Positions 6,920-41,399 of a stretch of 41,526 bases of DNA are shown piece after piece. This DNA comes from Alphaproteobacteria bacterium (GTDB taxonomy: Bacteria; Pseudomonadota; Alphaproteobacteria; Rs-D84). Each line of letters begins with the position of its first letter. The stretch's first letter is position 1. The position numbers were made by a program, and so were the translations under genes. The notes under the pieces were generated by a model. It saw only the letters and a list, made by a program, of their open reading frames with translations. It ran no database searches and was not told the DNA's origin. The stretch lies in the NCBI GenBank assembly GCA_017554365.1, contig JAFZIM010000052.1, positions 1 to 41,526 of the forward strand, in the 5' to 3' direction.

Positions 6920-7297
6920 ATGGCACGTATAGCAGGTGTTAACATTCCAAGTGAAAAACGCATTGAAATTGCGTTGCAATACATTCATGGTATTGGGCCG
7001 GCTAAATCAGCACAAATTTGTTCTGCATTGAAATTGAAAGACGGATTGCGTGCAAAAGATTTAACTGACGAGGATGTTATCAAAATTTCAAATTACATTG
7101 AACAAAATTTCAAAGTAGAAGGTGATGTTCGTCGTGAAGTTGCAATGAATATTAAACGTTTGCAAGATTTAAAAACATATCGCGGCATACGTCATCGTAA
7201 TCGTTTACCAGTTCGCGGTCAACGCACACAAACAAACGCAAGAACCCGTAAAGGAAAACGCGTTGTTGTTGCAGGTTCAGCGACCAAGGGTAAATAA
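6920..7297 (+). CDS. rpsM: 30S ribosomal protein S13
   Basis: 125 aa. [26 protein letters not shown] is typical of S13. Confidence 0.97.
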
Positions 7298-7360
7298 AGT
7301 TTAATTGGGTAGAGATTAACACGATAGTTAATTGAAGACATCTAATAAAAGGAAATTATA

Positions 7361-7744
7361 ATGGCAGTTACAAAATCAAAGAAGAAAGTTGTAAAGAAAG
7401 TATCACATGGTATTGCACATGTGGTTGCAACAAATAATAATACACGTATCACAATCACAGACCAAAGCGGTGCAGTTTTGACATGGGCAACCGCTGGGGC
7501 TAATAATTTCAAAGGTGCAAAAAAATCAACACCATACGCAGCAACAGTAGTAGCAGATGCAGTTGGTAAAAAAGTTGCTGAAATGGGTATGAAAACAATC
7601 GATGTTTTAATGCGCGGTATTGGTCAGGGTCGTGAATCTGCGGTTCGTGGTTTAGCAAATGCAGGATTGATTGTTCAATCTATTACAGACACGACACGTA
7701 TTCCACACAACGGGTGCCGTCCAAAGAAAGTTCGTCGTGTTTAA
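7361..7744 (+). CDS. rpsK: 30S ribosomal protein S11
   Basis: 127 aa. GIAHVVATNNNTRITITDQSG…FKGAKKSTPYAA and C-terminal IPHNGCRPKKVRRV are typical of S11. Confidence 0.97.
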   Translation: MAVTKSKKKVVKKVSHGIAHVVATNNNTRITITDQSGAVLTWATAGANNFKGAKKSTPYAATVVADAVGKKVAEMGMKTIDVLMRGIGQGRESAVRGLANAGLIVQSITDTTRIPHNGCRPKKVRRV

Positions 7745-16042: not shown

Positions 16043-16046
16043 AAAA

Positions 16047-16068
16047 ATGCCCTTCGGGGCATTTTTTA
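16047..16068 (+). terminator. Rho-independent terminator after P1
   Basis: ATGCCC (16047-16052) / GGGCAT (16057-16062), loop TTCG, then a T-run. Confidence 0.75.
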
Positions 16069-16192
16069 TTGGTTGTGAATATTTGTATAAAATATTTTTT
16101 ATATCCAAATTTTTGATTTATATTTTTTGAAAAATTTTTTATCAAATTTCTTTCTTTTTCACTATAAAAGTGTTTTTTTTAATGCCTTTTTA

Positions 16193-16201
16193 TGTTATAA
16201 T
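16193..16201 (+). promoter_or_regulatory. Extended -10 promoter candidate for the P2-P3 operon
   Basis: TGtTATAAT at 16193-16201, about 30 nt upstream of the P2 ATG. No convincing -35 element. Confidence 0.35.
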
Positions 16202-16231
16202 TTACAAAGATTATAGTAGAGAGATTTTTTC

Positions 16232-18817: not shown

Positions 18818-18819
18818 AG

Positions 18820-21552
18820 ATGAAAAATATTTTGAAATTCTTATTGTTAGCAATTGTATGTTGCATGTTTAATGCAGATGGTTTCGCTGCACGTGCACCT
18901 GTGAAATCAAGCAATCAAAATAAACCTGTACAAAAAGCACGTGCTGCTTCGGGTCAAAAGGCAATAAATTTAGGAACAAAAATTCAGGTTGCAACAACCA
19001 CATCTTCGCCATGTCAGGAAAAATACGATGCGTGTATGGATACTGGGTGTGTGATGGATAATGATTCCGGTGGTCGTTGTTTGTGTTCTGATCAATACAA
19101 AGATTTAAGTGATAAATTAGAAGAATTAAAAAAGAAAGATGCTGATACTTACAAAATCGCAAATATTGCCAAAGCAAGCATAGAAGATGGCGAAGATGTT
19201 GATGAAGCCATGGATTCCATCTTTGGTGATGAAGAAAGTGATTTCGATGTTAGCCCGGCTTCATCAGGTGCAACTGGGGATAAATTGCGTGCAGAAATGC
19301 ATAATATTTGTATTGAAAAAATACCTGAATGTAAATTGCAATTTGTTTTGGTTAAAAATATGTATATTCAGAAAATCAAATCAGATTGTGCCGCTTTTGA
19401 TAATGCTTTGCGGGAACAAAGTATCGCAAGCAAAGAAAAAAGGGCAGAAGCAAAAAAAATGGTGCGTGAAGCAGCCCTTGAAAAATATGAAGAAAATAAC
19501 AAATATGATTTGGGTCAATGTACAATTGAATTCACAAAATGTATAAAAACAACTGCTGAATGTGGCAATGATTTTACTGGCTGTGTTGATAGTGTTGGTA
19601 AAGATAAAATTTATGGCAAAGACATAGATGTATTTACTATCAAAGGTGAAAATTCTTCTGTGGTAATTGCTAAATCAACATACGAAATGTTGGAAAGTAA
19701 AAAATTAATTTGCGAAAGTGTTTTGAAAAATTGTGTTGATGTCAAAGACGAAGTTTGGAACGCGTTTTTGGCAAATTCTGCACCTGAAATAAAATTGGCA
19801 GAAAATAAATCAGAATCAAATATTCGTTCGTCTTGTTTGGAAAATATTTCAAATTGTTTTATTAATGCGTGCAAAGATAGTATCGAAGGTGATGACAAAG
19901 AATCTTATGATATGTGTTTGACACGTCCTGAAACGATGAAATCTTTGTGTCGTGTTCAAATGGAACCATGTTTGGCTGCAACTGGTGGTTCGTATGATGA
20001 ACCTGAAAAATCAACTTTATGGCCAAGCGTTTTAGCAAAATTATCTGCTATGCGTGCTGATTCTTGCACTGAAGAAATGAAAGAATGTATGCAAAGTGAA
20101 GACAGATGTGGCCCAGATTATGCAAATTGTATTGGGTTGGATACAAATATAATTATGCGTATGTGCCCGTATGATAAATTGCCTGGCTGTCAAAAAGTTT
20201 ATGGTGAAGATAAAATCCAAGGCGATGAAATTTATGACGAAGTTGCCAGAATTATCGAAGGCGTAATATTAAATATTGATAATGATTTATTAAAGGTTTG
20301 TGAAAATGCTGCTGAAACAGCAATGACAAAAGTTTGTGGTTCTGCTGAAAGTTGTGAGGTTTATGCAGCAGGTGGAAAAATTGGCGCACAATCTTTGAAA
20401 TATCAGGTTTGCCAATATTCAACAGATTCCCCAGATTCAACCGAAGGTTTCAAATGGTTCGATTGTCGCGAAAGTTTAGATCAAATATCTGATGCTGAAT
20501 TGGGACGTGTACAAGACGCCAAAAATGAAGAATTGGGTAATGTAAAACCATTTGCTGGTGTTATATCTGGTGTTATTAAATGGGAATCAGTAGAAATAAC
20601 AGACGATGGTTTAATTGATATAGATAAATATATGGAAGCATTAGAAAAAGAAAAAATCACAGAAGAAGAACGTGTTCGTGTCAAAGCAGAAATAGAGCAG
20701 GTGCAATCAGATATTAATCGTGTTATTTCATCTGTGGAACAAGACCAATGGTTGCAATTTTGTATTTCGGGTCGTCATATAACGGGCGTGACGGACAGAT
20801 TTGCGGATAATAAAGTACGTTTTCCAAAATTGGCAAATAATGTCCGTAAACAAATTGCTACCGCTGCATTACATCAGGCAAAAGAAAATTATTATGCCGA
20901 ATATGATAAATTATCCGCACAAATGCAACAAGATTTGGTGACAATAAGCGAAAGATTGGCAAATAACTTAAAAGAAAATGGCAAAGATGCTAAAAAAGCA
21001 GCGGCACGTGAGGCATGTGTTAATTTAGCTGCTGTGTCAGCATTTGCCAAAGCACCAGTCGGTCAATCTTTGTGGGCAAAGATTATTGTTGGTATAATTG
21101 TTGTTGCTGCGATTATTGTTGCAACAGTGTTTACATGTGGTGTTGCTGGTGGTGCTTCACTTGGATTTTTAGCAGGTGTTGCTACTGGTTCAATGATAAC
21201 TTCGGTGGTAGGGACTATTTCGGCAACGGGGGCTTTGATTGCGGCGTCAACTGCGACTGCCGTTGCTGGTGCCGCGGGAATTTCAGCAGCAGTTGATGCT
21301 GGTATAAATGCAACAACTGATAATAGTAAAATAGCAGCAGGAGAACAAACACAAAATCATGGTGAATATGCGGCGAATGAATGGAATTATCAAGAAAAAA
21401 TAACAACAGATTTTGATAATGATACAATGATTTGTAAGAAATGTGTTGTGAATCGTAAGTGTCGTTCTACAAAATGGTCTATATTCCGTGATAGATATTG
21501 TTCTAGTTGGGATCCTTATAGTGAACCAAGATGTACTGAAATTCAATTCTAA
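18820..21552 (+). CDS. P3: cysteine-rich protein of the same family with a C-proximal Gly/Ala-rich hydrophobic (glycine-zipper-like) region (910 aa)
   Basis: ATG lies 2 nt after the P2 stop, which suggests translational coupling. Signal peptide MKNILKFLLLAIVCCMFNADGFA. Signature CQEKYDACMDTGCVMDNDSGGRCLC at 19012-19086. Hydrophobic region at about 21073-21300. Tail CKKCVVNRKC…CSSWDPYSEPRCTEIQF. Confidence 0.92.
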   Translation: MKNILKFLLLAIVCCMFNADGFAARAPVKSSNQNKPVQKARAASGQKAINLGTKIQVATTTSSPCQEKYDACMDTGCVMDNDSGGRCLCSDQYKDLSDKLEELKKKDADTYKIANIAKASIEDGEDVDEAMDSIFGDEESDFDVSPASSGATGDKLRAEMHNICIEKIPECKLQFVLVKNMYIQKIKSDCAAFDNALREQSIASKEKRAEAKKMVREAALEKYEENNKYDLGQCTIEFTKCIKTTAECGNDFTGCVDSVGKDKIYGKDIDVFTIKGENSSVVIAKSTYEMLESKKLICESVLKNCVDVKDEVWNAFLANSAPEIKLAENKSESNIRSSCLENISNCFINACKDSIEGDDKESYDMCLTRPETMKSLCRVQMEPCLAATGGSYDEPEKSTLWPSVLAKLSAMRADSCTEEMKECMQSEDRCGPDYANCIGLDTNIIMRMCPYDKLPGCQKVYGEDKIQGDEIYDEVARIIEGVILNIDNDLLKVCENAAETAMTKVCGSAESCEVYAAGGKIGAQSLKYQVCQYSTDSPDSTEGFKWFDCRESLDQISDAELGRVQDAKNEELGNVKPFAGVISGVIKWESVEITDDGLIDIDKYMEALEKEKITEEERVRVKAEIEQVQSDINRVISSVEQDQWLQFCISGRHITGVTDRFADNKVRFPKLANNVRKQIATAALHQAKENYYAEYDKLSAQMQQDLVTISERLANNLKENGKDAKKAAAREACVNLAAVSAFAKAPVGQSLWAKIIVGIIVVAAIIVATVFTCGVAGGASLGFLAGVATGSMITSVVGTISATGALIAASTATAVAGAAGISAAVDAGINATTDNSKIAAGEQTQNHGEYAANEWNYQEKITTDFDNDTMICKKCVVNRKCRSTKWSIFRDRYCSSWDPYSEPRCTEIQF

Positions 21553-21579: not shown

Positions 21580-22572
21580 TTATTCTAATTCTTCCAAATT
21601 CTTTACAACACGTATTCCCATTGATTCAAATTTTTTTATTGTTTCGTCTATGTCCATTATATTTTGTGAACGTAAATATATTGTTGGAATAAATGGCGTG
21701 TCTTTTGATAATGTTAATAATTTTTGTATTGGTGATTCTTTCTGTTTGCCTGCTGCAAACCATGTGTCATCGTCCATTATCCAAAAATCTTCATCACTAT
21801 GTTCGTAAATTAAATTTTTATCAGAGCAAACAAATTCATCAATGATTTCATAATTGATATGTTTTGCATCAAAATATTTTGTTGTGAAATTTTCTAATTT
21901 GTTTTCTTCTTTGGATGTTAATTCGTCATCAAAATTTATATCTTTGAATTGTGGAATTGATAAATCTTCATTCATATTTAATGAAAAATCATTTGCTGAA
22001 TTTTGGTCGTCATTATCAAAAGGTAAATCAAAATCAGTTGGTATTGGGAAATCTTCCGGTGTTGGTTCGTTATTTGTTGGTTTTGGTTTTGTGTCGTTGT
22101 CTGTTTTGTTATATACAGATACGGCCCCCATCAAAGATTGATGATGTTTTGCACGCATATATGGAACTTTTAATTCAGGTGGCATATCAGATGGAAATAT
22201 ATTTTCTTCCGATTCGGTTTCTTCTGTTTCTTTCTTTTCTTCTTCATCAGCCACCGGGGCAGGTTTAGAAAATTTTGTTTTTATAAATTCAAATATTTTA
22301 TCTATAAATGGAATTTTTATTAATGATGCTTTATTTTTATATACGTTTATTGATGTTGCAATATAAATTGGAATTGCTGTGTACATCAATGTCGCAAATA
22401 CAAAACCTGCAAAACCATGAAAAGATGCGTGAAAAAATTTCCACCAATGATTTGCTGAAAAAGCATCAAAATTGAATATATATTGCAAAATCAACCAAAG
22501 AATAAAAAAGTATTCTATGGTCCATTTTACCAATTCAATATTTGTTTTAAAAAATTCTTTTATCTTTTGCAT
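21580..22572 (-). CDS. Hypothetical membrane protein (330 aa): N-terminal TM helices, acidic disordered linker, C-terminal globular domain
   Basis: Hydrophobic stretches WTIEYFFILWLILQYIF and FAGFVFATLMYTAIPIYIATSI. These are followed by a D/E/P/T-rich stretch, then an ordered C-terminal domain of about 100 aa. No family recognised. Confidence 0.7.
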   Translation of the reverse strand: MQKIKEFFKTNIELVKWTIEYFFILWLILQYIFNFDAFSANHWWKFFHASFHGFAGFVFATLMYTAIPIYIATSINVYKNKASLIKIPFIDKIFEFIKTKFSKPAPVADEEEKKETEETESEENIFPSDMPPELKVPYMRAKHHQSLMGAVSVYNKTDNDTKPKPTNNEPTPEDFPIPTDFDLPFDNDDQNSANDFSLNMNEDLSIPQFKDINFDDELTSKEENKLENFTTKYFDAKHINYEIIDEFVCSDKNLIYEHSDEDFWIMDDDTWFAAGKQKESPIQKLLTLSKDTPFIPTIYLRSQNIMDIDETIKKFESMGIRVVKNLEELE

Positions 22573-22681: not shown

Positions 22682-22710
22682 AATTTCATAAGAATTTGGG
22701 GGAAAGTAGT

Positions 22711-24885
22711 ATGAAAATATCAAATACATTTGGTTTTATGATGACGAGTTTGGCTGTCATGGCGACTTGTAGCGGTTTTGCTGCAAATAATGGACGCAGT
22801 ATGATGCAACAGGCAACTAATGTTGCTCGTATGCCGACAATGCCTGTCGTATCAATAAATTCTGTGGGAAATCCTGCTGTGCAAAATATAAATTTGCCTG
22901 TCAATAACAATACAGGTAGTATTATTCCTACACCTGTACCAAATCCAGATACCCCAACTCCAAATCCTTCTAAGTGCGAAGATGGTGGTGTAGAAAATTC
23001 TACTTATACTGCATCTATGTGTATGAATGATATTTTACAATGTATCAATACAGGCGCTTTGCAGGGCGGTTTGAATGATATGTTTAACGAAGATGTCCGT
23101 AATGCTATTATGGGCGGAATGCGTATCTGTCAAATGCATGTTGATAAATGTATTACCGAAGTTCGTGTAAATTGTAAAAATGTTTATCATGAAGCAACTG
23201 ATGTATGGCTTGATTTCAATTCAAGAATTGTTCAACCAGAATATTATAATTTCGTATTGCGTAAAACTGGGTTGACACCACATCAGGCAGAAAATACATG
23301 TTTGTTGTTGGATAGAAATGCTTATGGTTCTTCTTTCGCAGCGGTTTCTGATACAAATGTTGTAAATACAGAATACAATAATTTGGTCGGTGCATATAAT
23401 TCTGCAAATGGTGGAACTTTGTCCAAAGATAATCCACAAGGTGTTGCAGTAAATACCGTTGGTTATGATGGAAACCGCGGTCATTATGCACGTTGGGACG
23501 CATCTAATGCTGAATGTTTAATCCGTGTTGGTGCTTATAACAAAGATAAATCTATTACAAACAGCTGGTTGTTTGGTGCTGTGGGTAATGATAATGTTGC
23601 AGAAGTTTGGCAGAAAGCCGGTTCTACATTTACTTGCAACAAAGATTTGTTCGGATTTTCTTTGATGAATGATACAAAGACAGCCGCAGTTATCGGTGTT
23701 GGTGGTGGTACTTTGGTTGGTGCTGCTATCGGTGCTGGTGCAGGTGCTGCTGTGTATAACAAGAAAGCCAAAGAAGCCCAAGCAGAAAGCGATAGATTAG
23801 CAGAACAGGGTGCTAACCCATGTAATGACGAAGAATATCGTAAAAAATTGTCTGCAAAAATTATGCAAACACCTGATCGTAAAGATGAAGTGTTGAAAAC
23901 TTATTTGTATGAATCTGTTAACTTAAAGACAGATAATCAGGGTAAAAAGCAAGCTGAAATTGATACTGCTTCTTCAAACAAATTGTTTGGCCCAGATACA
24001 GATTGGTACAATTTAAACAAAGAACAATGCGATGCAATTTTGGGATTGTATTCAAAAGCTGCTGTGTATAAAGACGCTATTGAAAAATGTAGAAATGTCG
24101 ATACTAACAGGGTTATTTTGAATCAAATGCCATCAAATCAAACTGCATTTGAAAAATTGGAAATTGTTGATGCTTATGGCAATAAATTGTTGATGTCTGG
24201 TTCTGTTCAATGTGGTATGGCAAACAATATCACAGATAATCAGGTCAGAACATTTAATGAAACTTGCTTGTTCGTTCCATTACAGGTCGGTTTCGCAGTA
24301 GAACATAATGATTCACCTTTCTGTAATCACAATGGTAAATGCTTAACAGTTAACCAAATTGAAAACGAATTAAGCAGAATGAAATCATTGTTGACAAAGA
24401 TTGAACCTGTTGTTCCTGCTGGTATTGCAAGTGGTGAAACAAAATTAAGCAAGGGCAAAGAAATCGGTAAAGGTCTTGCTATCGGTGCTGTCACAGGTGC
24501 TGCTGCTGGTGGTTTAGCAACTGCAATTACAGCATTCGTAGAACGTAGCAACATTACATGTAAAGTCGGTGATGGTTTGAATTCTGTTGCATTGGGTAAA
24601 TCTCATACCATAGATTCTTTGAAAGATTTCTATGTAAAATGGAATTTACATTTACCTGATACAGTATCCCCAACATCTGCTGTTGTTGACAGAACATCTT
24701 GGGATGCTGCATGTGCACAATTCAATGGCAAATTACATGATTGTCCACGTGTTCAAATCAATTTGAAAAATGCACATGGTAAATATACTTTGGTTCAAGG
24801 CGCATGTGTTGTTTCAGGTTCAATTTGTATAACAAATGATTCTGTTGCAGCATCACATGGTGCAGCATCACATGATGCAGAATAA
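22711..24885 (+). CDS. P7: cysteine-rich envelope protein with two glycine-zipper-like hydrophobic segments (724 aa); unknown function
   Basis: ATG at 22711 follows GGGGGAAAG. Signal peptide MKISNTFGFMMTSLAVMATCSGFA. A Pro-rich linker (PTPVPNPDTPTPNPS) follows. Cys occur throughout. Gly/Ala segments are TAAVIGVGGGTLVGAAIGAGAGAAVY (23680-23757) and GLAIGAVTGAAAGGLATAITAFV (24472-24540). Confidence 0.88.
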   Translation: MKISNTFGFMMTSLAVMATCSGFAANNGRSMMQQATNVARMPTMPVVSINSVGNPAVQNINLPVNNNTGSIIPTPVPNPDTPTPNPSKCEDGGVENSTYTASMCMNDILQCINTGALQGGLNDMFNEDVRNAIMGGMRICQMHVDKCITEVRVNCKNVYHEATDVWLDFNSRIVQPEYYNFVLRKTGLTPHQAENTCLLLDRNAYGSSFAAVSDTNVVNTEYNNLVGAYNSANGGTLSKDNPQGVAVNTVGYDGNRGHYARWDASNAECLIRVGAYNKDKSITNSWLFGAVGNDNVAEVWQKAGSTFTCNKDLFGFSLMNDTKTAAVIGVGGGTLVGAAIGAGAGAAVYNKKAKEAQAESDRLAEQGANPCNDEEYRKKLSAKIMQTPDRKDEVLKTYLYESVNLKTDNQGKKQAEIDTASSNKLFGPDTDWYNLNKEQCDAILGLYSKAAVYKDAIEKCRNVDTNRVILNQMPSNQTAFEKLEIVDAYGNKLLMSGSVQCGMANNITDNQVRTFNETCLFVPLQVGFAVEHNDSPFCNHNGKCLTVNQIENELSRMKSLLTKIEPVVPAGIASGETKLSKGKEIGKGLAIGAVTGAAAGGLATAITAFVERSNITCKVGDGLNSVALGKSHTIDSLKDFYVKWNLHLPDTVSPTSAVVDRTSWDAACAQFNGKLHDCPRVQINLKNAHGKYTLVQGACVVSGSICITNDSVAASHGAASHDAE

Positions 24886-32360: not shown

Positions 32361-34691
32361 TTATTTACAATAACCCCACAATTTATTTGTACCGGTGTTT
32401 TTATAGAATGTTTCGTTCAAAGTATCACCAGTCGTATCGTGTTTACCATCTGCTTGGGAATCAATCCATGGAGTATCAACCCATGTTCCTGATTGTTCTT
32501 TACATTCAGCAGCAATTTCATTAACTAAACTTTGTTTAAGTGTTCTGAATACTTTATCTACATCAGCCAACAAAGATTCTGACAATACCCCAGATGTGCT
32601 CGAAGGACGAGTGCAATTTTGTAAAGCATATCTTACCAGTTGTTGATATAAACTGCCGATATAATATTCGCCACATTGTTGATAAAGAACAGAATAATCG
32701 CCACCTGATAAAGGCGCTTCTGTTCCACCTGCACAGACATCGCCTGTTCTGCATGGACAGCAAGAAGTTGCAGTTCCACTTGATGCGTAATCTTTTTCTT
32801 GGGAATTAATGTCGCATAGATAGTAATTATATCTGCAACTGGTATATCTTTTGTTTGCTTCTTCTTTTTTGCAAATTAATGAATATTTTGATGAAGAATT
32901 ATAATCTTCTTTCTTGGTAATCAACAAATTAGATTTATCAAAAGGATTGATAATTGTTAAATTACATCTTGCATTATTTGCATATCTTTTATCCCCAGGT
33001 GAATATGTTCGGCAAGCATAAGGATAAGAGTGAACCGAATCGTTTTTTGATACAGCACATGTTTTTTGCACGAATTTTTCAAGTAGAGCAGGGCAACTTT
33101 GTTCAATAGTTGCATCTGTGATACCAGCCATCGTAGATACCAATAATTTTAATCCGTTCGGGCCACCACCATAAAGATTACTACATGCTTTTAATTTTTC
33201 TTGGCACATTTCTTCGGATGTTTCCAATTGTTGTCCTAAAGAAACCTCTGCAGAATTATCAGAAAAGTTTTTTAATTGTTCTGCTTTTTTCAAATAACAT
33301 GTATTCACTACACTTAAACATTCTGATTTAACCTGTTGAACACGTTGTTTTTGACCTTGATAAATTTCTACAATTGCTTGACGAAGAAATTCATCCCAAA
33401 CTTTATCTGCATTATCTGTGCATAAACTTAAACTTTTTTTCGCATAACTGCGTTTAGATTGTAATATTTTTACGAAGTCAGTATTTTGACGATTTGTTAA
33501 TACATCACCTTCTAAAGATATTTGATTCACAAATTGATAAAATTCAGCGGTGTATAATGGTTCGCCAGTTCTTTGGTTTAAATATTTTCCAGTTATGTCC
33601 AGACAATGAATATAATTTTTACCGCATGCAGTATCTTGGGTTAAATCTTCACGAACCTTTGAAATACAATCATTTAATGACAAATAATTATGTGCATTAT
33701 AATTTTCTAATCTTGCATCTTGCATTTGATGTCTTGTTGAACGAATAGCGGCGTTTGCTTCTGTTTTTTTACCAGCCAAAGTATTGGCCAACACTTCGCA
33801 ATCATTTTCAATATACATACCATACGCAGAAGCAACCATTTTTAAATCTGATTCTTTGCAATCTTCTTTTATAATTTCAGAACATTGTGCGTGAACTGCG
33901 TTATATAATGCTTCGCCTGAAAGATTCGCAATATCTGCACCACCAATTAAATCCGTAGTTGACCATATTTCTTTTAATTTTTTATCTGCTGAATCAGAAG
34001 AAGATGTAGATGATTTTTTTGTGTCTTTTAATACATTTGATATGTTGCTTAAAGTTTTTGCACTTTCTGATTTATCTTTTTTCATGGCCGCTTCACCTTC
34101 GGAAGCAGAACCCATTGCATGAACTTCATCTGCTGTTTTTGAAATAGCATCAATATTTATATCTTGGAAATCTTTTAAACTATCATTTGTTTGCGATAAT
34201 TTTTTTTCTGTGCCTTGGATTTCTTTTAAACGTGAAGAACAAACGCATCTGCGGTAAGTTTCATTTTGTATGGCACAAAATTGATCCATACAAGAAAAAT
34301 ATGAATCCCTGCAATTTGTATATTCTGCGCCAAAAGTTTTGGTTGTTTTTGTTGCGACAGATGCACGAGAAATTTGTTTTCTTGTTGCCGAACGTGAAGT
34401 TGTTGCCTTTCTTGTATTTATAGAATTTGTTGCAGCACGACTTTTAACAACTTTTTTTGATGATGTTGTTGTTCTTGTTGTTTTTTTATTTCGTGTCGTT
34501 GCAGAAATTTTTTTATTTTCGTTGTTTGAACGAGATGATGCCCTGTGTACAACATTTGTTGAATTTGTTGTTCTTGAATAAACCGCATTTTGTCCCGAAG
34601 AACGAGAAATATTATTGGATTGACGACCAGCCGCATTAGCAACGCTAATACACACAGAAACCCCCAGTAAAAAAAGAAATATTTTTCTCAT
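32361..34691 (-). CDS. P4: secreted cysteine-rich protein, divergent member of the same family (776 aa)
   Basis: Signal peptide MRKIFLFLLGVSVCISVANA. A basic S/T/R/K/N-rich region of about 110 aa follows. Signature CRDSYFSCMDQFCAIQNETYRRCVC lies at 34313-34239 with spacing identical to the other members. Later blocks align loosely with them (LYNAVHAQCSEIIKEDC…, ACGKNYIHCLD). The start is ambiguous: ATG at 34691 or TTG at 34718. Confidence 0.88.
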   Translation of the reverse strand: MRKIFLFLLGVSVCISVANAAGRQSNNISRSSGQNAVYSRTTNSTNVVHRASSRSNNENKKISATTRNKKTTRTTTSSKKVVKSRAATNSINTRKATTSRSATRKQISRASVATKTTKTFGAEYTNCRDSYFSCMDQFCAIQNETYRRCVCSSRLKEIQGTEKKLSQTNDSLKDFQDINIDAISKTADEVHAMGSASEGEAAMKKDKSESAKTLSNISNVLKDTKKSSTSSSDSADKKLKEIWSTTDLIGGADIANLSGEALYNAVHAQCSEIIKEDCKESDLKMVASAYGMYIENDCEVLANTLAGKKTEANAAIRSTRHQMQDARLENYNAHNYLSLNDCISKVREDLTQDTACGKNYIHCLDITGKYLNQRTGEPLYTAEFYQFVNQISLEGDVLTNRQNTDFVKILQSKRSYAKKSLSLCTDNADKVWDEFLRQAIVEIYQGQKQRVQQVKSECLSVVNTCYLKKAEQLKNFSDNSAEVSLGQQLETSEEMCQEKLKACSNLYGGGPNGLKLLVSTMAGITDATIEQSCPALLEKFVQKTCAVSKNDSVHSYPYACRTYSPGDKRYANNARCNLTIINPFDKSNLLITKKEDYNSSSKYSLICKKEEANKRYTSCRYNYYLCDINSQEKDYASSGTATSCCPCRTGDVCAGGTEAPLSGGDYSVLYQQCGEYYIGSLYQQLVRYALQNCTRPSSTSGVLSESLLADVDKVFRTLKQSLVNEIAAECKEQSGTWVDTPWIDSQADGKHDTTGDTLNETFYKNTGTNKLWGYCK

Positions 34692-34761
34692 TCCTATACT
34701 TTTAAATAATAATAACAAAAATAAGATATTTTAAGCAAGAATATTTTAAATAAATTTCGCA

Positions 34762-34787
34762 ATAAAAAAATCCACATATTGTGGATT
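34762..34787 (-). terminator. Rho-independent terminator after infA
   Basis: On the minus strand: AATCCAC / GTGGATT stem (34787-34781 and 34775-34769), 5-nt loop, then a T-run (complement of the A-run at 34762-34770). Confidence 0.7.
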
Positions 34788-34791
34788 CTTT

Positions 34792-35043
34792 TTAATGATT
34801 TGGTGCAGATTCATTTGCTGCACGTGTTCTTTCTACAAAAGTTATTCGACCTTTGTCTAAATCATAAGGTGTCATTTCTACATGGACTTTTTCCCCAATG
34901 TTAACCCAGATACGTGCTTTACGCATTTTTCCACATACGGTTGCCAAAATAACATGTCCGTTATCCAATTTAACACGGAACATTGTGTTTGGTAAACTTT
35001 CTTCAACAACACCAGAAAAAACGATTACATCATCTTTTGCCAT
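34792..35043 (-). CDS. infA: Translation initiation factor IF-1
   Basis: [69 protein letters not shown] is the canonical S1-like IF-1. I trimmed the start to the ATG at 35043, which is preceded by AAAGG. It has a C-terminal extension of about 11 aa. Confidence 0.95.
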
Positions 35044-35115
35044 TATTAACCTTTTGTTTTTTACAACACAAATGATATTAGTCATAAAAATAAATTGCAA
35101 GAAGTTTTTATATAC

Positions 35116-35144
35116 TTGCAAGATTTAATATTTTTTGATAAAAT
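35116..35144 (+). promoter_or_regulatory. Promoter candidate with extended -10 for the P5-P6 operon
   Basis: TTGCAA (35116-35121), 17-nt spacer, TAAAAT (35139-35144), TG at 35136-35137. The string TGATAAAAT is the same as upstream of P1. Confidence 0.45.
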
Positions 35145-35170
35145 ACATATACAATGTAGGAATGTATCAG

Positions 35171-37372
35171 ATGAAAAAAATGAAATTTTTGTTGGTTTTA
35201 TTGATGTTTCCGGCTGTTGCGTTTGCTGCGGGTCGTGGTGATGGTGCTGCTCGTGTTGGAATGAGTAGTAGGGGTTCACAGGCAGGGGCAAGAATGTCTA
35301 TCACATCTTTAGATGTTAAAGAAGCCGCATCAAAAGCTCCAATTTCTACAAAAGTTGAAGAACCAGAAGAAGTCGAAGAAATCGTCGAAGTCGTTGAAAA
35401 ACCGGCAAAAAAGACGACTAAGGTTGTTGTAAAAGAAGTTGAAGAATCAGAAGAAATAGAAGAAACAAAATCTTCTAAGGGTTCAGATGATTGTCGTGAA
35501 TCATATCGTGATTGTATGGATCAATTCTGTTTATTAGACGAAAGTCAGGGTGAACGTTGTGCTTGTTCTGATAATATAGAATTAGCAAAAAGTAAAATTA
35601 AGGCCGTTTTAGATATTCAAGCAGAAGCAGATAAATTGTTTACAGAAGGTGTGGAACGTGAACAATTAGGTGCTAAGGCAAGATTGGTATTCACAGAAAA
35701 TTCCGGAAACAAAGGCGTTTCAGGAACTAATTTCTTGGCGTGGCTTGGTGGTGAAAGCGACGACGAAGATGATGATGTTGGTGAAGATGTCACAATGGGT
35801 GATGATTTATACCAAATGGCTGTGAAATATTGTTCTGCTGAATTAGAATCTTGTGGTTCAAAGGGCGAAATGGAAGCGATGTTATATACTCGTATGATTA
35901 CCCAAGATTGTAAAAATTATGATGCTTATTTAAAAGATCAAAAAGCAAATGCAGAATCTAATAAACGTATTGCAGAATCTGCTGTGCGTAAGGCACGTCT
36001 TGAAATGCTTGATACAACCAATAAATACAATCGTGGTGAATGTTTGTTGGCTTATCGTGCATGTATAGCAGATAAGGGTGGTTGTGGAACTAATTTTGAA
36101 AACTGCCTTGATAAAAAATTATTAGAACGTCGTTCAAATGCTTGTGAAAACATATTGGATCAATGTATGGCTGTTCGTGATTATGTTAAACAAGATTGGG
36201 CCCAAGAATCAAAAAGTGTTTTGGAAGAAGCAGCAAAATATGCTGATAAAAATAGACGTGGAACATGTTTGGCTCAGGCACAATTCTGTTTGGAAGAAAG
36301 TTGTTCTACATCAACAAATGCAGAATGTTTAACAAATGTAAATGTTGCTGCTGGAATTTGTCCTATTATTACAGAATGTGAAGAAATTATCCCAGGATTC
36401 CAAGGTGTTATAAATGATAAATTGGGATTTTTGAGAACAAAATTCTGTGAAAATGATATTGATAAATGTTTGCGTGATAAATGTGGTCAAGATTTCACAA
36501 AGCCAGAATGTGTTGGTAAAAAACCTTATGAAATCGCTGCTTTGTGTCCACAAGATATGTTCCCATCATGTAATGGTGCTGCACAATATGACATAATCGT
36601 TCAATCTGCGATTTTACAGATGGATTATCAGATGTTGCAGGGCTGTGTGAATTATTTCGGTGAACAATTATCAAAAGTTTGTGGAACAGATATGGCTTGC
36701 TTGCCAATTGACGCAACAATTGAAGCATTGACAGATTTACCAGACACCGAAGAAGGTTTGGCAAAATTACGTAAACAGGTTGTTGCAAATTCTGATGCCG
36801 CAGTTGAAGAATTCTTTGCACAATTTGAACGTGATAAAACCGTTTCTGCTTGTGCTGACTCTCAATCTGTTGAAACCAAGAAAGTCAAAGGTAAAAATTC
36901 TTTGGGTGTAAGCGTATTTAATTCTGCTAAATTATTGGCAAAAATGTCTGCTGAAAATCGTAATATACGTGAATTAGATTCCAAGATTGCTGAATTGGCA
37001 CGTAAAAAAGATTTGGCAGAAGCAAAAGAAATTTGCTTGAAGACATATAAACCTGAAAAACCAGATAATTCAAAGTCAAATTATAGTTATATACACACAG
37101 TATCATTTGAACCTAATTTACGTAATTGTCACGTATGTCGTATGCAACAAGTATGTGAAGAAGGTGGCGAATCCAAGGCAACATCTGCGTTGAAAGCGGC
37201 GGCTGGTGGTTTGTCTGCTGGTGCATCTGCTGGAACAATGATAAGTGCTGGTTGGGGAACTGCTATCGGTGGTGTCGTCGGTGCTGTTGGTGCCGGTGTA
37301 ATGGGTGCTATGTCCGGTGGTAAAAAAGAATTCTGTCAGGAAATTGAATCCTGCGAAGATATTAATATGTAG
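35171..37372 (+). CDS. P5: cysteine-rich protein of the same family with a glycine-zipper-like segment inserted in the C-terminal Cys tail (733 aa)
   Basis: ATG at 35171 is 8 nt after AGGAA. Signal peptide MKKMKFLLVLLMFPAVAFA. Signature CRESYRDCMDQFCLLDESQGERCAC at 35492-35566. Gly/Ala segment AAAGGLSAGASAGTMISAGWGTAIGGVVGAVGAGVMGAMSGG at about 37187-37320. Ends CQEIESCEDINM. Confidence 0.9.
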   Translation: MKKMKFLLVLLMFPAVAFAAGRGDGAARVGMSSRGSQAGARMSITSLDVKEAASKAPISTKVEEPEEVEEIVEVVEKPAKKTTKVVVKEVEESEEIEETKSSKGSDDCRESYRDCMDQFCLLDESQGERCACSDNIELAKSKIKAVLDIQAEADKLFTEGVEREQLGAKARLVFTENSGNKGVSGTNFLAWLGGESDDEDDDVGEDVTMGDDLYQMAVKYCSAELESCGSKGEMEAMLYTRMITQDCKNYDAYLKDQKANAESNKRIAESAVRKARLEMLDTTNKYNRGECLLAYRACIADKGGCGTNFENCLDKKLLERRSNACENILDQCMAVRDYVKQDWAQESKSVLEEAAKYADKNRRGTCLAQAQFCLEESCSTSTNAECLTNVNVAAGICPIITECEEIIPGFQGVINDKLGFLRTKFCENDIDKCLRDKCGQDFTKPECVGKKPYEIAALCPQDMFPSCNGAAQYDIIVQSAILQMDYQMLQGCVNYFGEQLSKVCGTDMACLPIDATIEALTDLPDTEEGLAKLRKQVVANSDAAVEEFFAQFERDKTVSACADSQSVETKKVKGKNSLGVSVFNSAKLLAKMSAENRNIRELDSKIAELARKKDLAEAKEICLKTYKPEKPDNSKSNYSYIHTVSFEPNLRNCHVCRMQQVCEEGGESKATSALKAAAGGLSAGASAGTMISAGWGTAIGGVVGAVGAGVMGAMSGGKKEFCQEIESCEDINM

Positions 37373-37393
37373 AAATAATTGGGAGAGAAAACC

Positions 37394-39871
37394 ATGAAAA
37401 AAATATTTAATCTTGGTTTAATAGTTGGGTTAATAGGTATCACTTTGACACCTTGTGATGGATTTGCTGCGGCTGCTAAATCAGCCAAAAAGCAATCTGC
37501 TTTGCAAGGCGGAACAAAGGTACGTGCAAAAACGGAAGCCAAGGGTATTTATAAACAGGAATGTTATGATAAATATTATGGTTGTATGGACCAATTCTGC
37601 ATAGCTGATAATGAAAACGGCGGTTCTTGTATGTGTAGTGATGATGCTGCAAAATACGATGAACAACTTGAATCTATCAAGAAAACTTTGACAGAAGCAG
37701 AACGTATCAGATTAGAAGAAGTTGAAAAGGTTAAAGCCGGTGCTAATGCTGACATTATCTTTGGTACAGGTGAAAGAGTTTACAATGATGATGGTAGTGT
37801 TGTAAAAGTTGGCGAAAAGAAAAAAGAATCTGCCACTTCTTTCAATATGCCTTCTTTGTATGATGAAGAAGATGAAGAATTCGATGATGAATGGGAAGAT
37901 ATAGATTTATCAGACAAAGTTGGTAAAGAATTATATAATGCTGCAAATGAATTGTGTAAAAATCAAATGCCTGATTCTTGTTCCAGCGATATGACAATGT
38001 TAGTTCAAATGTATTCACGTCAGATAATTTCTGATTGTAAAGGTTTAGCAAATAGTATCGCTGTAAAGAAAGCAGAAGCGGATGCTGCATTGAATGCTGC
38101 AAAAGCAGAAGTACGTGGCGCTTTGAAAGAAAGTTTAGAAGAATCTAATAAATATGACCGCGGAACATGTATGGTTGAATATAAAAAATGTATGAAGAGT
38201 ACAGATGCATGTGGTCCAGATTGGGAAAATTGCGTATTTACAATCGCATCTGAAAATATGCAAAATAATTCTTCTGAAAGTGTTATAGGAACACAAGTTG
38301 ACACAATTAGTAAATATAAAATCACAGCGTCAACTTTGGAAATATTGCAATCTAAACGTTTTATTTGTGAAAAGGTTTTAGATAGTTGTATTGCTGTTCG
38401 TGATTACATCTGGGACGATTTCTTAAGAGAAGCCGCACCAACAATCAGATTGGCAGAACAAAATATTGAATCTAAGAAAAGACAATCTTGCCTTGGTGAT
38501 ATTTCTAAGTGTATCCAAAAAGCATGTAAAGATGATATCGAAGGCAAGGGTGTAGATACAATGGATGCGTGCTTGGCACGTCCTGATATGGCTCGTTCTT
38601 TCTGTAAAGTTCAATTGGACCCATGCGAAAGAATGGAACCACAAATTTGGGATTATGTAAAAAGTAAATTGGCTGCTATGCGTGTAGATTCTTGCACAAA
38701 AGAAGTCAAAGATTGCTTTACAGCAGAAGATCGTTGTGGACCTGATTTCATGAATTGTATAGGTATGGATTTCAATTACATTCATGATATGTGCCCATTG
38801 GATAAATTGGTGACATGTAAACAATCTAATCCTGATTTCAAAATGTCAGATTTGGATTCTATGTTGATGGGATTGTATTTGAATATTGATAACAAGGCAT
38901 TGGATAACTGCCAGAAATTAGCAGAAGATAAAATGGTAGAATTATGTGGTTCTACAACAGATTGTAATTCATTTGCTTCTGATGAATACCTTGGTACAGG
39001 TTCTATAAAATCTCAGAAAGATGAAACTGTATATCGTGTGACAGGTATGATTTCATTTGGATCTATCAAAATGGGTGATGCAAGTGGTTCTGTAAAAGAT
39101 GGCGGACAAGTTTTGAAACCAGGTGAAATTGGTGTTAAAGATTATATCGCAGAAGTAAAGAAGAAAAACAAAGATGTCCCTGGGGCAGATGGTATTATAT
39201 CTTCTATTGAAGAAGAATTGAATAATATTGCTGGCACAATTAACAGAGCAATTTCTTTGATTGAATCAGACACAAGAATACAATATTGTATAACTGGTCG
39301 TGATTTAAGCCAAATCAATGGTAAAGAAAACAAGAGAGGCGAAAATCAAACAGAAGCTCGTTTCCCAACATTGTTAAATCAGTATCGTGTTATGATTGGT
39401 ATGGCTGCATTAAGAAAAGCACAAGACAATTATAACAAGAAAGTGACAGCTGCTATTGAAGAAGCCGCAAAAAGTTCTTCAGATGACGTTGCTGAATTTA
39501 TGTGCCATAAGATTGGGGATATGGGAAATACTTCTTATGATTTAAGTAAATTGTCAGAACAAAAACCTTTAACCAGCCCATTTGCAATATCTTATGATGT
39601 TGGTGTTGGATTAAAGACAGAAACATTGATGACAGGTGGTGTTGGTAAAATCCAAGAAGGTGGCGATACATTCACATATCGTGGCAGAACATCTAAGAAT
39701 TCAGGTGTTTTGAAAGAACGTGAAGCAACATTTAATCGTCAAACACGTACATGTCATGTTTGCACGACCACAACCACAACTTCATGTAAGAATATGACAA
39801 AATATTTCAAATCTGAAAGTGATTGTAAGGTTGAAGCAGGCGAACCTATATGTGAAGATATACAAATGTAA
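37394..39871 (+). CDS. P6: secreted cysteine-rich protein of the same family (825 aa)
   Basis: ATG at 37394 is 6 nt after GGGAGAG and 21 nt after the P5 stop. Signal peptide MKKIFNLGLIVGLIGITLTPCDGFA. Signature CYDKYYGCMDQFCIADNENGGSCMC at 37562-37636. Tail CHVCTTTTTTSCKNMTKYFKSESDCKVEAGEPICEDIQM. Confidence 0.92.
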   Translation: MKKIFNLGLIVGLIGITLTPCDGFAAAAKSAKKQSALQGGTKVRAKTEAKGIYKQECYDKYYGCMDQFCIADNENGGSCMCSDDAAKYDEQLESIKKTLTEAERIRLEEVEKVKAGANADIIFGTGERVYNDDGSVVKVGEKKKESATSFNMPSLYDEEDEEFDDEWEDIDLSDKVGKELYNAANELCKNQMPDSCSSDMTMLVQMYSRQIISDCKGLANSIAVKKAEADAALNAAKAEVRGALKESLEESNKYDRGTCMVEYKKCMKSTDACGPDWENCVFTIASENMQNNSSESVIGTQVDTISKYKITASTLEILQSKRFICEKVLDSCIAVRDYIWDDFLREAAPTIRLAEQNIESKKRQSCLGDISKCIQKACKDDIEGKGVDTMDACLARPDMARSFCKVQLDPCERMEPQIWDYVKSKLAAMRVDSCTKEVKDCFTAEDRCGPDFMNCIGMDFNYIHDMCPLDKLVTCKQSNPDFKMSDLDSMLMGLYLNIDNKALDNCQKLAEDKMVELCGSTTDCNSFASDEYLGTGSIKSQKDETVYRVTGMISFGSIKMGDASGSVKDGGQVLKPGEIGVKDYIAEVKKKNKDVPGADGIISSIEEELNNIAGTINRAISLIESDTRIQYCITGRDLSQINGKENKRGENQTEARFPTLLNQYRVMIGMAALRKAQDNYNKKVTAAIEEAAKSSSDDVAEFMCHKIGDMGNTSYDLSKLSEQKPLTSPFAISYDVGVGLKTETLMTGGVGKIQEGGDTFTYRGRTSKNSGVLKEREATFNRQTRTCHVCTTTTTTSCKNMTKYFKSESDCKVEAGEPICEDIQM

Positions 39872-39901
39872 TTCACAAAAGATATATTCCTAGATAATAA
39901 T

Positions 39902-39927
39902 AAACCGCCGTTATGGCGGTTTATTTA
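39902..39927 (+). terminator. Rho-independent terminator after P6
   Basis: AAACCGCC (39902-39909) / GGCGGTTT (39915-39922), loop GTTAT, with a T-rich trailing sequence. Confidence 0.65.
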
Positions 39928-40011
39928 TATTGTCAAATCGTTCCTAGATATTTTTAAGGTGGTCTTTGGTATAATACAGATGTGTACAAACAAAACCAAG
40001 GGAGAAATATA

Positions 40012-40356
40012 ATGAAAAAAATATCTTTGTTTGCAATGATGGCGATAGTCCCAATGTGTGGTGCTATGGCCGGACAAAATAAAAACATGAATTATAAACA
40101 ACCTACATATTGGTCTGTGACAGAAGTTATGACTTTGCCAGATAATTCACCTGTTGTAATGCGTGGTCGTATTACAAAAAATATGGGTGAACAAATGTAT
40201 TTGTTTGAAGATTCTTCAGGTAATATTGTTATGGAAATAGATGAAGAAGATTGGAATGGAAATACAGTTCGTGTAAATGATGTTGTGACCATTTATGGAA
40301 AAGTTGATAAAGGTTCTGATAGTGTAGAAATAGATGTGGAATCTATTGAAAAATAA
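40012..40356 (+). CDS. YgiW/YdeI-family periplasmic bacterial OB-fold (BOF) protein
   Basis: Signal peptide MKKISLFAMMAIVPMCGAMA. The core LRGRITKNMGEQMYLFEDSSGNIVMEIDEEDWNGNTVRVNDVVTIYGKVDKGSDSVEIDVESIEK parallels E. coli YgiW (…YVFKDASGTINVDIDHKRWNG…VEIDV…) as I recall it. Confidence 0.8.
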   Translation: MKKISLFAMMAIVPMCGAMAGQNKNMNYKQPTYWSVTEVMTLPDNSPVVMRGRITKNMGEQMYLFEDSSGNIVMEIDEEDWNGNTVRVNDVVTIYGKVDKGSDSVEIDVESIEK

Positions 40357-40358
40357 AA

Positions 40359-40381
40359 ATGCCCGCAAGGGCATTTTTTTA
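40359..40381 (+). terminator. Rho-independent terminator after the ygiW-like gene
   Basis: ATGCCC (40359-40364) / GGGCAT (40369-40374), loop GCAA, T-run at 40375-40381. Confidence 0.75.
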
Positions 40382-40427
40382 TTTGTTCTTTTTTTATGTT
40401 GTTTTTTGTGATATAATTATATTTGAT

Positions 40428-41399
40428 ATGAGAATCTTGAAATATATACCTTTTATGATTATGTGTATGTTTGCAAATACTGCTATGGCGGGTTGGCAAT
40501 ATAATGGTTATTACATAAAAGATGGTTATTATTCTGATGATGGTTCAAGATTTATAATTGGTTTTAATGGCGGGCTGTCTTGGGGTAATGCATCTATTAC
40601 AAATGAAGTTGGCAGTTTACAGGCATCGTATTATATGAATTCTACTACTGGTGTTGTTATATCTGGTACAGCGTATGCTTTGCTTGATTCAACACAACAG
40701 GCAGAATATGTTGATATTGGTATTGGTGATGTATCTGAATTAAAAGCAAAAAAAGATTTTTCTAAAACTGCTTTTGCTGCGGGTGCTTATATTGGATTTA
40801 CAATACCTAATCATCCACAATGGCGTTTACAGGCGGGATATGACCATATTGCAGAAACTGATTATGACAGAATACCTTTGTTCGAAGGTGATATATCTTT
40901 GACAAGTGGATATAGCGCACATGTGTATAGCAGTGGTGTTAAATCTACGATTACGACAGACATTATATCAATAATGGCGGTATATGATTTCTTTGAAGGA
41001 AATACAAAACCTATGAATACTATAATCCCTTATGTTGGCATAGGGGCAGGATATTCAATGTCAAAAACAACATTAAAATTAACAGATATATTTGGTGATT
41101 TATCTCAAGATGCAGATTTAATAAATTATGGAACTTTGGAAAATGGTATTTTGGTTTTTGATAATCCAAATGGTTCTGATAAATATCCAACATCTAATAA
41201 TATTGCGTTGTTGGGGACACTTGGTATTTCTTATGGGATAAATGAATATACATATCTTGATTTAAATGCGCGTGTAATGTATGTTCCAAAAATCAGTTGG
41301 CAGATAGCCAATTCAGATGGAACACAACATCGTGATTGGTTCGGTGCTGAAAATATGATATACAGCAACGTTATGTTGGGTTTAAGATTTGAATTTTAA
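40428..41399 (+). CDS. Outer-membrane beta-barrel protein (porin/OMP_b-brl-like), 323 aa
   Basis: Signal peptide MRILKYIPFMIMCMFANTAMA. Alternating hydrophobic pattern rich in Gly, Tyr, Ser and Thr. C-terminal beta-signal …NVMLGLRFEF ends in Phe. Start trimmed from 40359, which lies inside the terminator hairpin. Confidence 0.65.
   Translation: MRILKYIPFMIMCMFANTAMAGWQYNGYYIKDGYYSDDGSRFIIGFNGGLSWGNASITNEVGSLQASYYMNSTTGVVISGTAYALLDSTQQAEYVDIGIGDVSELKAKKDFSKTAFAAGAYIGFTIPNHPQWRLQAGYDHIAETDYDRIPLFEGDISLTSGYSAHVYSSGVKSTITTDIISIMAVYDFFEGNTKPMNTIIPYVGIGAGYSMSKTTLKLTDIFGDLSQDADLINYGTLENGILVFDNPNGSDKYPTSNNIALLGTLGISYGINEYTYLDLNARVMYVPKISWQIANSDGTQHRDWFGAENMIYSNVMLGLRFEF

Follow-up and report, generated by a model that had tools for sequence, protein, structure and literature searches.

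The window analysed here, the 41,526-nucleotide contig JAFZIM010000052.1 of Candidatus Enterousia, a gut alphaproteobacterium of the order Rs-D84, raises the question of what three large cysteine-rich proteins, designated P4, P5 and P6 and encoded around infA, the gene for translation initiation factor IF-1, are to one another, how their genes came to stand in this place, and what the proteins may do for the cell. Three further proteins, P1–P3, are encoded 11 kb upstream on the same contig in a first locus with the gene order rpoA-rplQ-P1..P3-X2-ccrM, and a preliminary description of the window had read all six as members of one family. On the basis of the sequence comparisons presented below, P4, P5 and P6 are ancient, vertically inherited core paralogs of a lineage-restricted family, for which a structural role in the cell envelope is proposed with more reserve.

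Enterousia and the other Rs-D84 bacteria occur widely in the rumen and in the guts of horses, chickens, termites and humans, and their genomes, smaller than 1 Mb, are unusually reduced. Enterousia, which is placed in the GTDB order Rs-D84, has a genome of about 0.75–1.0 Mb without a respiratory chain, a tricarboxylic acid cycle, most biosynthetic pathways or the standard transporters, while MreB, RodA and MrdA are present, and a partner-dependent lifestyle has been proposed for it (PMC12306168). The literature on Enterousia and Rs-D84 yielded genome descriptions and no description of the P family or of a host cell.

Family membership and database comparisons

In an all-against-all blastp comparison, P6 matched P1–P3 with E values of 1e-99 to 1e-112 and P5 matched P6 with an E value of 9e-43; P4 matched P1, P2 and P6 at 1e-20 to 1e-23 and P5 at 2.5e-6. 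The ranking proposed earlier, with P6 nearest to P1–P3, P4 farthest from them and P5 between the two, is borne out by blastp, and it was likewise recovered from the alignment and the shuffle scores. The possibility that the similarity of P4 and P5 is an artefact of cysteine-rich composition was addressed with local alignment scores against 60 composition-preserving shuffles, above which P4 stood at z = 16–38 and P5 at z = 44–56, whereas X1 and X2, the other large cysteine-rich proteins of the window, remained at chance (z −1.3 to 0.6). With scores 16–56 standard deviations above shuffled sequences, and with cysteine spacing fingerprints that match across the family, the similarity is not a chance one, and the composition artefact is refuted.

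The six-way alignment of P1–P6 contains about 20 invariant cysteine columns. Among its invariant features are the N-terminal five-cysteine signature, C-x6-C-x4-C-x9-C-x-C, and a G..L(Y)...C-x7-C...Y..I..DC block, so that both elements that had been noted by eye in P4–P6 (the second as GD.LY...C...C...DC) correspond to invariant columns; the peptide strings quoted for P6 are also all present in its translation. The cysteine spacing lists of P1–P3, P5 and P6 are nearly identical, and that of P4 follows the family through its first half and then continues into a C-terminal domain of its own. A C-terminal Cys-knot ending in C-x-[DE]-[IV]-x-[MFY] was found in P5 (CEDINM), in P6 (CEDIQM) and in their orthologs; P4 lacks this region and ends in WGYCK. 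Judged by sequence, P4, P5 and P6 belong beyond doubt to one family with P1–P3.

Homologs were numerous (1485 for P6 and 884 for P4), none of them carried a protein name, and they originated from gut, rumen and termite metagenomes. The genome matches were metagenome-assembled genomes labelled Candidatus Enterousia, 'uncultured Rickettsiales' or 'Alphaproteobacteria bacterium'. An exhaustive profile search of 1.84 billion representatives assigned 1046 clusters to the family, and ten divergent cluster representatives that were looked up bore only the labels 'hypothetical protein' and 'Alphaproteobacteria bacterium'. At a Pfam cut-off of E < 0.01, scans of the eight large proteins of the window against Pfam and NCBIfam returned only sub-threshold noise, the best Pfam match of P5 being Bacteriocin_IIc at E 0.045, below the cut-off, and none of 46 family members reached the cut-off when scanned singly against Pfam, nor did any Pfam family recur among them. 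In Foldseek searches, none of which gave a match at E < 0.1, the best E values were 0.73 (P6) and 0.83 (P4) against PDB and 0.14 (P6) against BFVD, and profile searches with three alignments against PDB sequences gave nothing below E 0.19; a fold match may have been missed by Foldseek because the structural models are only moderately confident. Weak Foldseek matches (E 0.2–3) that recurred between the C-terminal part of P6 and levivirus coat proteins or CapZ were treated as chance. As far as these comparisons reach, the P proteins constitute a real family without known relatives that has not been previously described. Since no Pfam or NCBIfam model, name or fold match is available for it, the family is a target for structure determination and metaproteomics and a candidate lineage marker.

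Inheritance, selection and cysteine conservation

The gene order P4 (minus strand), infA (minus), P5 (plus), P6 (plus) and a BOF gene was found in nearly all of 55 species-level Rs-D84/Enterousia genomes, counted only where the contig extends far enough; P6 identity falls to about 55% across these genomes, and the infA orthologs of the related loci are 78–88% identical. The family had been described as embedded among essential genes, and this stands for most genomes, in which infA is present and pgk-clpP-clpX adjoins P4. The exceptions are one subclade (L028–L031, L033–L037, L039 and L042), in which the P4-side neighbours are other genes and not clpX, and the termite-gut relatives L047 and L054, in which the P5–P6 pair occurs without infA beside it. 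In a member of that subclade, L034 (1604–3973 and 14321–18616), a PMP-repeat autotransporter gene (PF03797) lies about 0.8 kb past the end of P4, separated from it by an unannotated open reading frame (ORF) of 233 aa, and P6 is followed downstream by two OmpA-domain genes, which makes this an envelope-rich neighbourhood. In two metagenome-assembled genomes (L053 3378–5890 and L047 3724–6225), the P6 ortholog is split into two ORFs, which could reflect a frameshift, a pseudogene or an assembly error.

The first locus is also preserved. A metagenome scan with P3 gave three loci, one of which, on the 213-kb contig L058, showed the same synteny, rpoA-rplQ-P1-P1'-P2-P3-o330-X2-ccrM-nrdR-slt, with a P3 ortholog that is 55% identical. 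Four family genes follow rplQ on this contig (2002–12913), one of them an extra P1-like copy, so that at least seven paralogs are present in that genome and the copy number of the first locus varies.

In a neighbour-joining tree, six ortholog clades held every sequence, with the same species order inside each. The phylogeny that had been called for places each paralog in an ortholog clade of its own. Orthologs are 43–81% identical, compared with 20–39% for paralogs, so that the duplications predate the radiation of the lineage. The second half of the refuted alternative, a recent mobile insertion, fares no better than the composition artefact: besides the synteny across 55 species, tblastn searches of plasmid and phage collections gave no match, PHROGs gave none, PADLOC gave one chance-level match (E 0.0027), and composition is flat across the interval without a break. 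The conserved order in related genomes, the ortholog clades, the absence of any sign of mobility and the low ratios of nonsynonymous to synonymous substitution (dN/dS) reported next all agree with the earlier proposal of old, vertically maintained paralogs.

Measured against the closest relative, contig L059, at dS 0.25–0.62, dN/dS was 0.059 for P6, 0.079 for P5 and 0.132 for P4, in the range of the comparison genes pgk (0.145), rnhB (0.075), clpP (0.038) and clpX (0.011). Ortholog identities of 55–81% for P5 and 51–76% for P6 likewise stand beside 54–74% for Pgk. Relaxed regions were confined to the disordered N-terminal linkers and to residues 561–710 of P4, where the ratio of nonsynonymous to synonymous differences (pN/pS) is 0.42–0.44 versus 0.02–0.12 in the core. 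On these sequence-derived ratios, P4–P6 are under strong, housekeeping-like purifying selection. As a separate observation, the dS of P6 compared with positions 9251–11728 of L059 is 0.245, below that of most neighbours (0.39–0.62 for clpX, clpP, pgk, rnhB, infA, P4, P5 and the gene after BOF), and BOF alone is similarly low (0.251); selection on codons or mRNA, or a recent exchange, is possible.

Cysteine is the most or second most conserved residue type. All 36 mature cysteines are kept in 98–100% of 52 orthologs of P5 and of 49 orthologs of P6, with values of about 0.65 at the other positions, and a mature count of exactly 36, an even number, occurs in 48/52 P5 orthologs and 47/49 P6 orthologs. 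The core cysteines of P4 are 97–100% conserved among 37 orthologs.

Protein architecture and possible function

Sec-type signal peptides are predicted in P4, P5 and P6, and since no conserved lipobox was found in the family proteins, they are not lipoproteins. In P4, about 100 aa of basic, disordered linker, rich in Ser, Thr and Arg and composed of Ser, Thr, Arg, Lys and Asn, separate the signal peptide from a helical cysteine-rich core, after which comes the P4-specific C-terminal domain. In P5, an acidic linker joins the signal peptide to the family core, and the C-terminal Cys-knot carries an insert. P6 comprises a signal peptide, a core with the 36 mature cysteines and long helices, and a beta-rich C-terminal Cys-knot. 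Most members (13229–21552 and 32361–39871) carry a low-complexity linker and then a short basic motif, approximately ARAA..QK..N.GTKV, before the first cysteine block.

The insert of P5 (residues 676–717), which lies inside the Cys-knot, is a Gly/Ala-rich, zipper-like hydrophobic segment. It is present in at least 43/53 P5 sequences (the 52 orthologs and the P5 of the window), of which 39/53 end exactly in CEDINM; P6 orthologs end in CEDIxM. P3 of the first locus also has a hydrophobic insert and P1, P2 and P6 have none, so that each locus appears to pair one potentially tethered member with untethered ones. The nearest analogies to known systems are functional only, and for this segment they are the glycine-zipper outer-membrane lipoproteins (Rickettsia 17-kDa antigen/SlyB/Pcp, PF05433 and PF13441): P5, P3 and X2 carry a 25–45-residue Gly/Ala/Ser/Val segment of the GxxxG type, which could form a membrane-inserted hairpin. 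In contrast to those lipoproteins, P5 gave no significant match to PF05433 or PF13441, is not a lipoprotein and holds the segment inside its C-terminal Cys-knot.

C-x6-C pairs number 8–11 per protein in P5 and P6 and 5 in P4, versus about 1.6 expected (1.2 for P4), and a 23-residue four-cysteine motif, C-x6-C-x6-CGxD-x3-C, occurs twice (hhalign probability 93%); in a test for large internal module duplication, this motif was the only repeated element. The spacing pattern suggests disulfide-stapled helix hairpins. In this respect the proteins resemble the twin-Cx9C (CHCH) proteins of the mitochondrial intermembrane space, in which cysteines are likewise paired along the two helices of a hairpin, an arrangement that suggests two stapling disulfides; the P-family spacing is x6 and not x9, the motif stands in Sec-exported proteins of about 800 aa, and no homology was detectable. 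The AlphaFold2 model of P6 (mean predicted local distance difference test, pLDDT, 66.7) contains helices of up to about 58 residues and a beta-rich C-terminal region, and that of P4 (mean pLDDT 66.0) is helical with a better-defined C-terminal domain.

A different use of the cysteines, in binding metals (zinc or iron–sulfur) or as a redox or thiol buffer that scavenges oxygen or electrophiles, would suit an anaerobe without a respiratory chain, in which oxidative folding is not obviously supported, and four-cysteine C-x6-C-x6-C-x6-C motifs do occur twice. This reading is nevertheless improbable, as there is no CxxCH and only 0–1 CxxC per protein, which leaves the proteins without cytochrome- or thioredoxin-like motifs, and no Pfam metal-cluster or redox domain was found; Sec export would moreover place the proteins outside the cytoplasm, and paired disulfides account better for an i/i+7 spacing along predicted helices and for a cysteine count of 36, which is even.

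For the family as a whole, the preferred interpretation, an inferred function that is given about an even chance, is that of core structural proteins of the cell envelope that are Sec-exported, disulfide-stapled, helical and partly membrane-tethered. Each family protein would be exported by Sec and would then adopt a largely alpha-helical fold that about 18 disulfides staple together, as suggested by the heptad-spaced C-x6-C pairs and the repeated CGxD-containing motif. The proteins would remain in the cell envelope as abundant structural components, in which the glycine-zipper hairpin of P5 may tether it to a membrane, P5 may pair with the untethered P6, P3 may do likewise with P1 and P2 of the other locus, and the more variable cysteine-rich C-terminal module of P4 could face outward. 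An envelope scaffold is proposed because of the housekeeping-like constraint, the one-to-one orthology, the frozen cysteines and the envelope-gene neighbours, which include the BOF gene and an outer-membrane-protein (OMP)-like gene adjoining the locus and, in the clade of L034, the autotransporter and OmpA-domain genes described above.

The closest functional precedent is found in Chlamydia, where OmcB and OmcA, Sec-exported cysteine-rich proteins encoded by core genes, are thought to stiffen the envelope through disulfides. The resemblance lies in the export, the cysteine richness, the core status of the genes and the setting in a dependent Gram-negative bacterium with a small genome; no sequence or fold relation to OmcB/OmcA was found by Pfam or Foldseek. 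The P family differs from them in being predicted to be mainly alpha-helical, in its length of about 750–950 aa and in its 6–7 paralogs. Unlike in the chlamydial case, peptidoglycan genes are present in the Rs-D84 lineage, with an Slt gene in the window and MreB/RodA in Enterousia (PMC12306168).

Several points weigh against an envelope scaffold of this kind. The usual DsbA/DsbB–quinone route to disulfides is not obviously available to a fermentative gut anaerobe that has no respiratory chain, and P4 orthologs mostly have an odd cysteine count of 29 or 31. The segment of P5 is called a glycine zipper on composition alone, and no Pfam model of that kind is significant on the protein; the structural models are only moderately confident (mean pLDDT 66–67, predicted template modelling score 0.38). 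High expression is also not supported, since the codon-usage bias of the family is only intermediate between those of ribosomal proteins and enzymes.

Alternatively, the family proteins may be surface-exposed attachment or nutrient-acquisition proteins that bind a partner cell (a microbe, a protist or the host epithelium), in which the helical, disulfide-stapled body would serve as a stalk and binding would fall to the variable parts. Such proteins would suit an organism that is missing most biosynthesis and the standard transporters and for which dependence on partner cells has been proposed, and the family occupies 36% of the contig and, in a genome of about 0.9 Mb, some 1.7% of the total. 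The faster evolution of the cysteine-rich C-terminal module of P4 (561–710) and the conserved extreme C-terminal motif, which could be a sorting signal, also fit. The Helicobacter Hop adhesins (BabA/SabA) and type V autotransporters offer a parallel, in that they too are exported and large, have a helical body clasped by disulfides and carry a hydrophobic or aromatic residue at the very C-terminus. However, attachment as the primary role is doubtful, though a real possibility: families of adhesins or antigens do not typically combine gene-wide dN/dS values of 0.06–0.13 with one-to-one orthology and a stable copy number, and no autotransporter or other surface-export domain was found, with no match to the beta-barrel anchor models PF03797, PF03895 or PF01856. 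This negative result is informative because the same Pfam scan detects PF03797 (E 6.8e-30) next door in L034. The C-terminal region of the P proteins, including the last 90 residues, is in addition polar and does not form a membrane barrel.

Secreted toxins or effectors directed against competitors or hosts, which might be considered for large exported proteins without known relatives and with no other function on record in a dependent bacterium, are very improbable. No toxin, enzyme or secretion-system domain was found with Pfam, NCBIfam or PADLOC, no immunity-like small genes are adjacent, and the housekeeping neighbourhood, conserved synteny and strong purifying selection point away from such a role.

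Whether in building the cell or in holding a partner, the family proteins very likely play a central part, because a genome of less than 1 Mb retains all copies under purifying selection like that of a glycolytic enzyme and with every cysteine frozen; the reduced genome keeps six or seven genes of 2.2–2.8 kb of a single family, about 15 kb in all. A more specific proposal, which is speculative and rather unlikely in its entirety, is that the six or seven paralogs form a new disulfide-cross-linked envelope or cell–cell attachment structure specific to Rs-D84, in which the tethered P3 and P5 would pair with the untethered P1/P2 and P6, and which would be essential for partner-dependent life. If true, it would imply that a gut anaerobe lacking a respiratory chain makes about 18 disulfides in each protein by an unrecognised route. 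Disulfide formation in such a gut bacterium is a specific puzzle posed by the family.

Transcription units and neighbouring genes

The coordinates of the genes and of the predicted transcription signals are collected in the table below. P5 and P6 are real, co-oriented genes, as had been described, and the 21 nt between the P5 stop and the P6 ATG hold a GGGAGAG Shine–Dalgarno sequence; across the orthologous loci this gap measures 2–63 nt and typically 14–21 nt. The preliminary description had arranged the locus divergently around infA, and P4 does lie on the strand opposite to P5–P6; infA, however, is co-directional with P4 and upstream of it, so that the divergent pair consists of infA and P5–P6, and P4 forms a unit of its own beyond the infA terminator.

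That terminator, already proposed between P4 and P5, was found as a hairpin with a T-run that begins 5 nt past the infA stop. A hairpin and T-run follow infA in nearly all orthologous loci, where the stem sequences differ and the pairing is kept (ATCCAC/GTGGAT, CCCGC/GCGGG, CACCGCC/GGCGGTG and AACCGTT/AACGGTT). In the infA–P4 spacer, a CTTGC-N18-TTTTTG(T/A)TAT(T/C)AT motif, corresponding to the predicted P4 promoter, is likewise kept in nearly all of these loci. The spacer between infA and P5 measures 113–147 nt in most compared loci and 60–73 nt in four, where P5 was assumed to start at the first ATG in frame. When 42 orthologous spacers were aligned, both sets of promoter boxes and a GTAGGA ribosome-binding site emerged as conserved columns. 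Because the terminator, the P4 promoter and the divergent promoters are conserved and the P5–P6 gaps are short, three transcription units appear to be present, namely infA, P4 with its own promoter, and a P5–P6 operon divergent from infA, in which P6 is probably co-transcribed with P5. The promoter and terminator functions are put forward on the conserved sequence. An Rfam scan of the window found no RNA family.

Table. Positions of the genes and predicted transcription signals of the P4–P6 interval, and of other genes in the window.
Feature	Position	Strand	Details
P4 gene	32361–34691	minus	ATG start, 776 aa (ORF and translation)
Predicted P4 promoter	34706–34739	minus	−35 TTGCTT (34738–34733), 18-nt spacer, extended −10 TGtTATTAT (34717–34709)
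infA intrinsic terminator (predicted)	34762–34790	minus	stem 34770–34776/34780–34786, then T-run
infA (translation initiation factor IF-1)	34792–35043	minus	83 aa; Pfam eIF-1a, E 1.6e-23
Predicted back-to-back divergent promoters, infA versus P5–P6	35072–35144	both	consensus scan
Predicted infA promoter	35100–35095 and 35078–35073	minus	−35 TTGCAA (35100–35095), −10 TATCAT (35078–35073); consensus scan
Predicted P5–P6 promoter	35116–35121 and 35136–35144	plus	−35 TTGCAA (35116–35121), N17, extended −10 TGATAAAAT (35136–35144); consensus scan
P5 gene	35171–37372	plus	733 aa
P6 gene	37394–39871	plus	825 aa
Strong terminator-like hairpin closing the P5–P6 unit	39899–39925	plus	12-bp stem, then T-rich tail
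X1	7856–10780	plus	974 aa
330-aa protein gene	21580–22572	minus	330 aa
X2	22696–24885	plus	729 aa
BOF gene and the 346-aa protein gene after it	39982–41399	plus	BOF: OB-fold periplasmic protein

Eight large exported proteins without known relatives (X1, P1–P3, X2 and P4–P6) account for about 49% of the 41.5-kb contig, and the rest consists of housekeeping genes. The BOF gene follows P6 in nearly all related genomes, and in the core group of Enterousia it is followed in turn by a gene for a 346-aa signal-peptide protein with an OMP-like C-terminus (GLRFEF) and no Pfam match. The gene for the 330-aa protein, which has N-terminal hydrophobic helices, a very acidic tail and no Pfam match, is convergent to P3 and conserved in L056 and L058. 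X2 is an exported protein with two Gly/Ala-rich zipper segments that gave only sub-threshold glycine-zipper matches, and it is conserved after P3 and o330 in L058. X1 gave no Pfam match and, with a shuffle z of about 0, has no relation to the P family; this exported protein contains 69 cysteines and 16 CxxC motifs, its cysteine spacing resembles protist variant-surface or furin-like repeats, and its gene lies in the ribosomal super-operon between rpsM/rpsK-type genes (6920–7744) and rpoA (10895).

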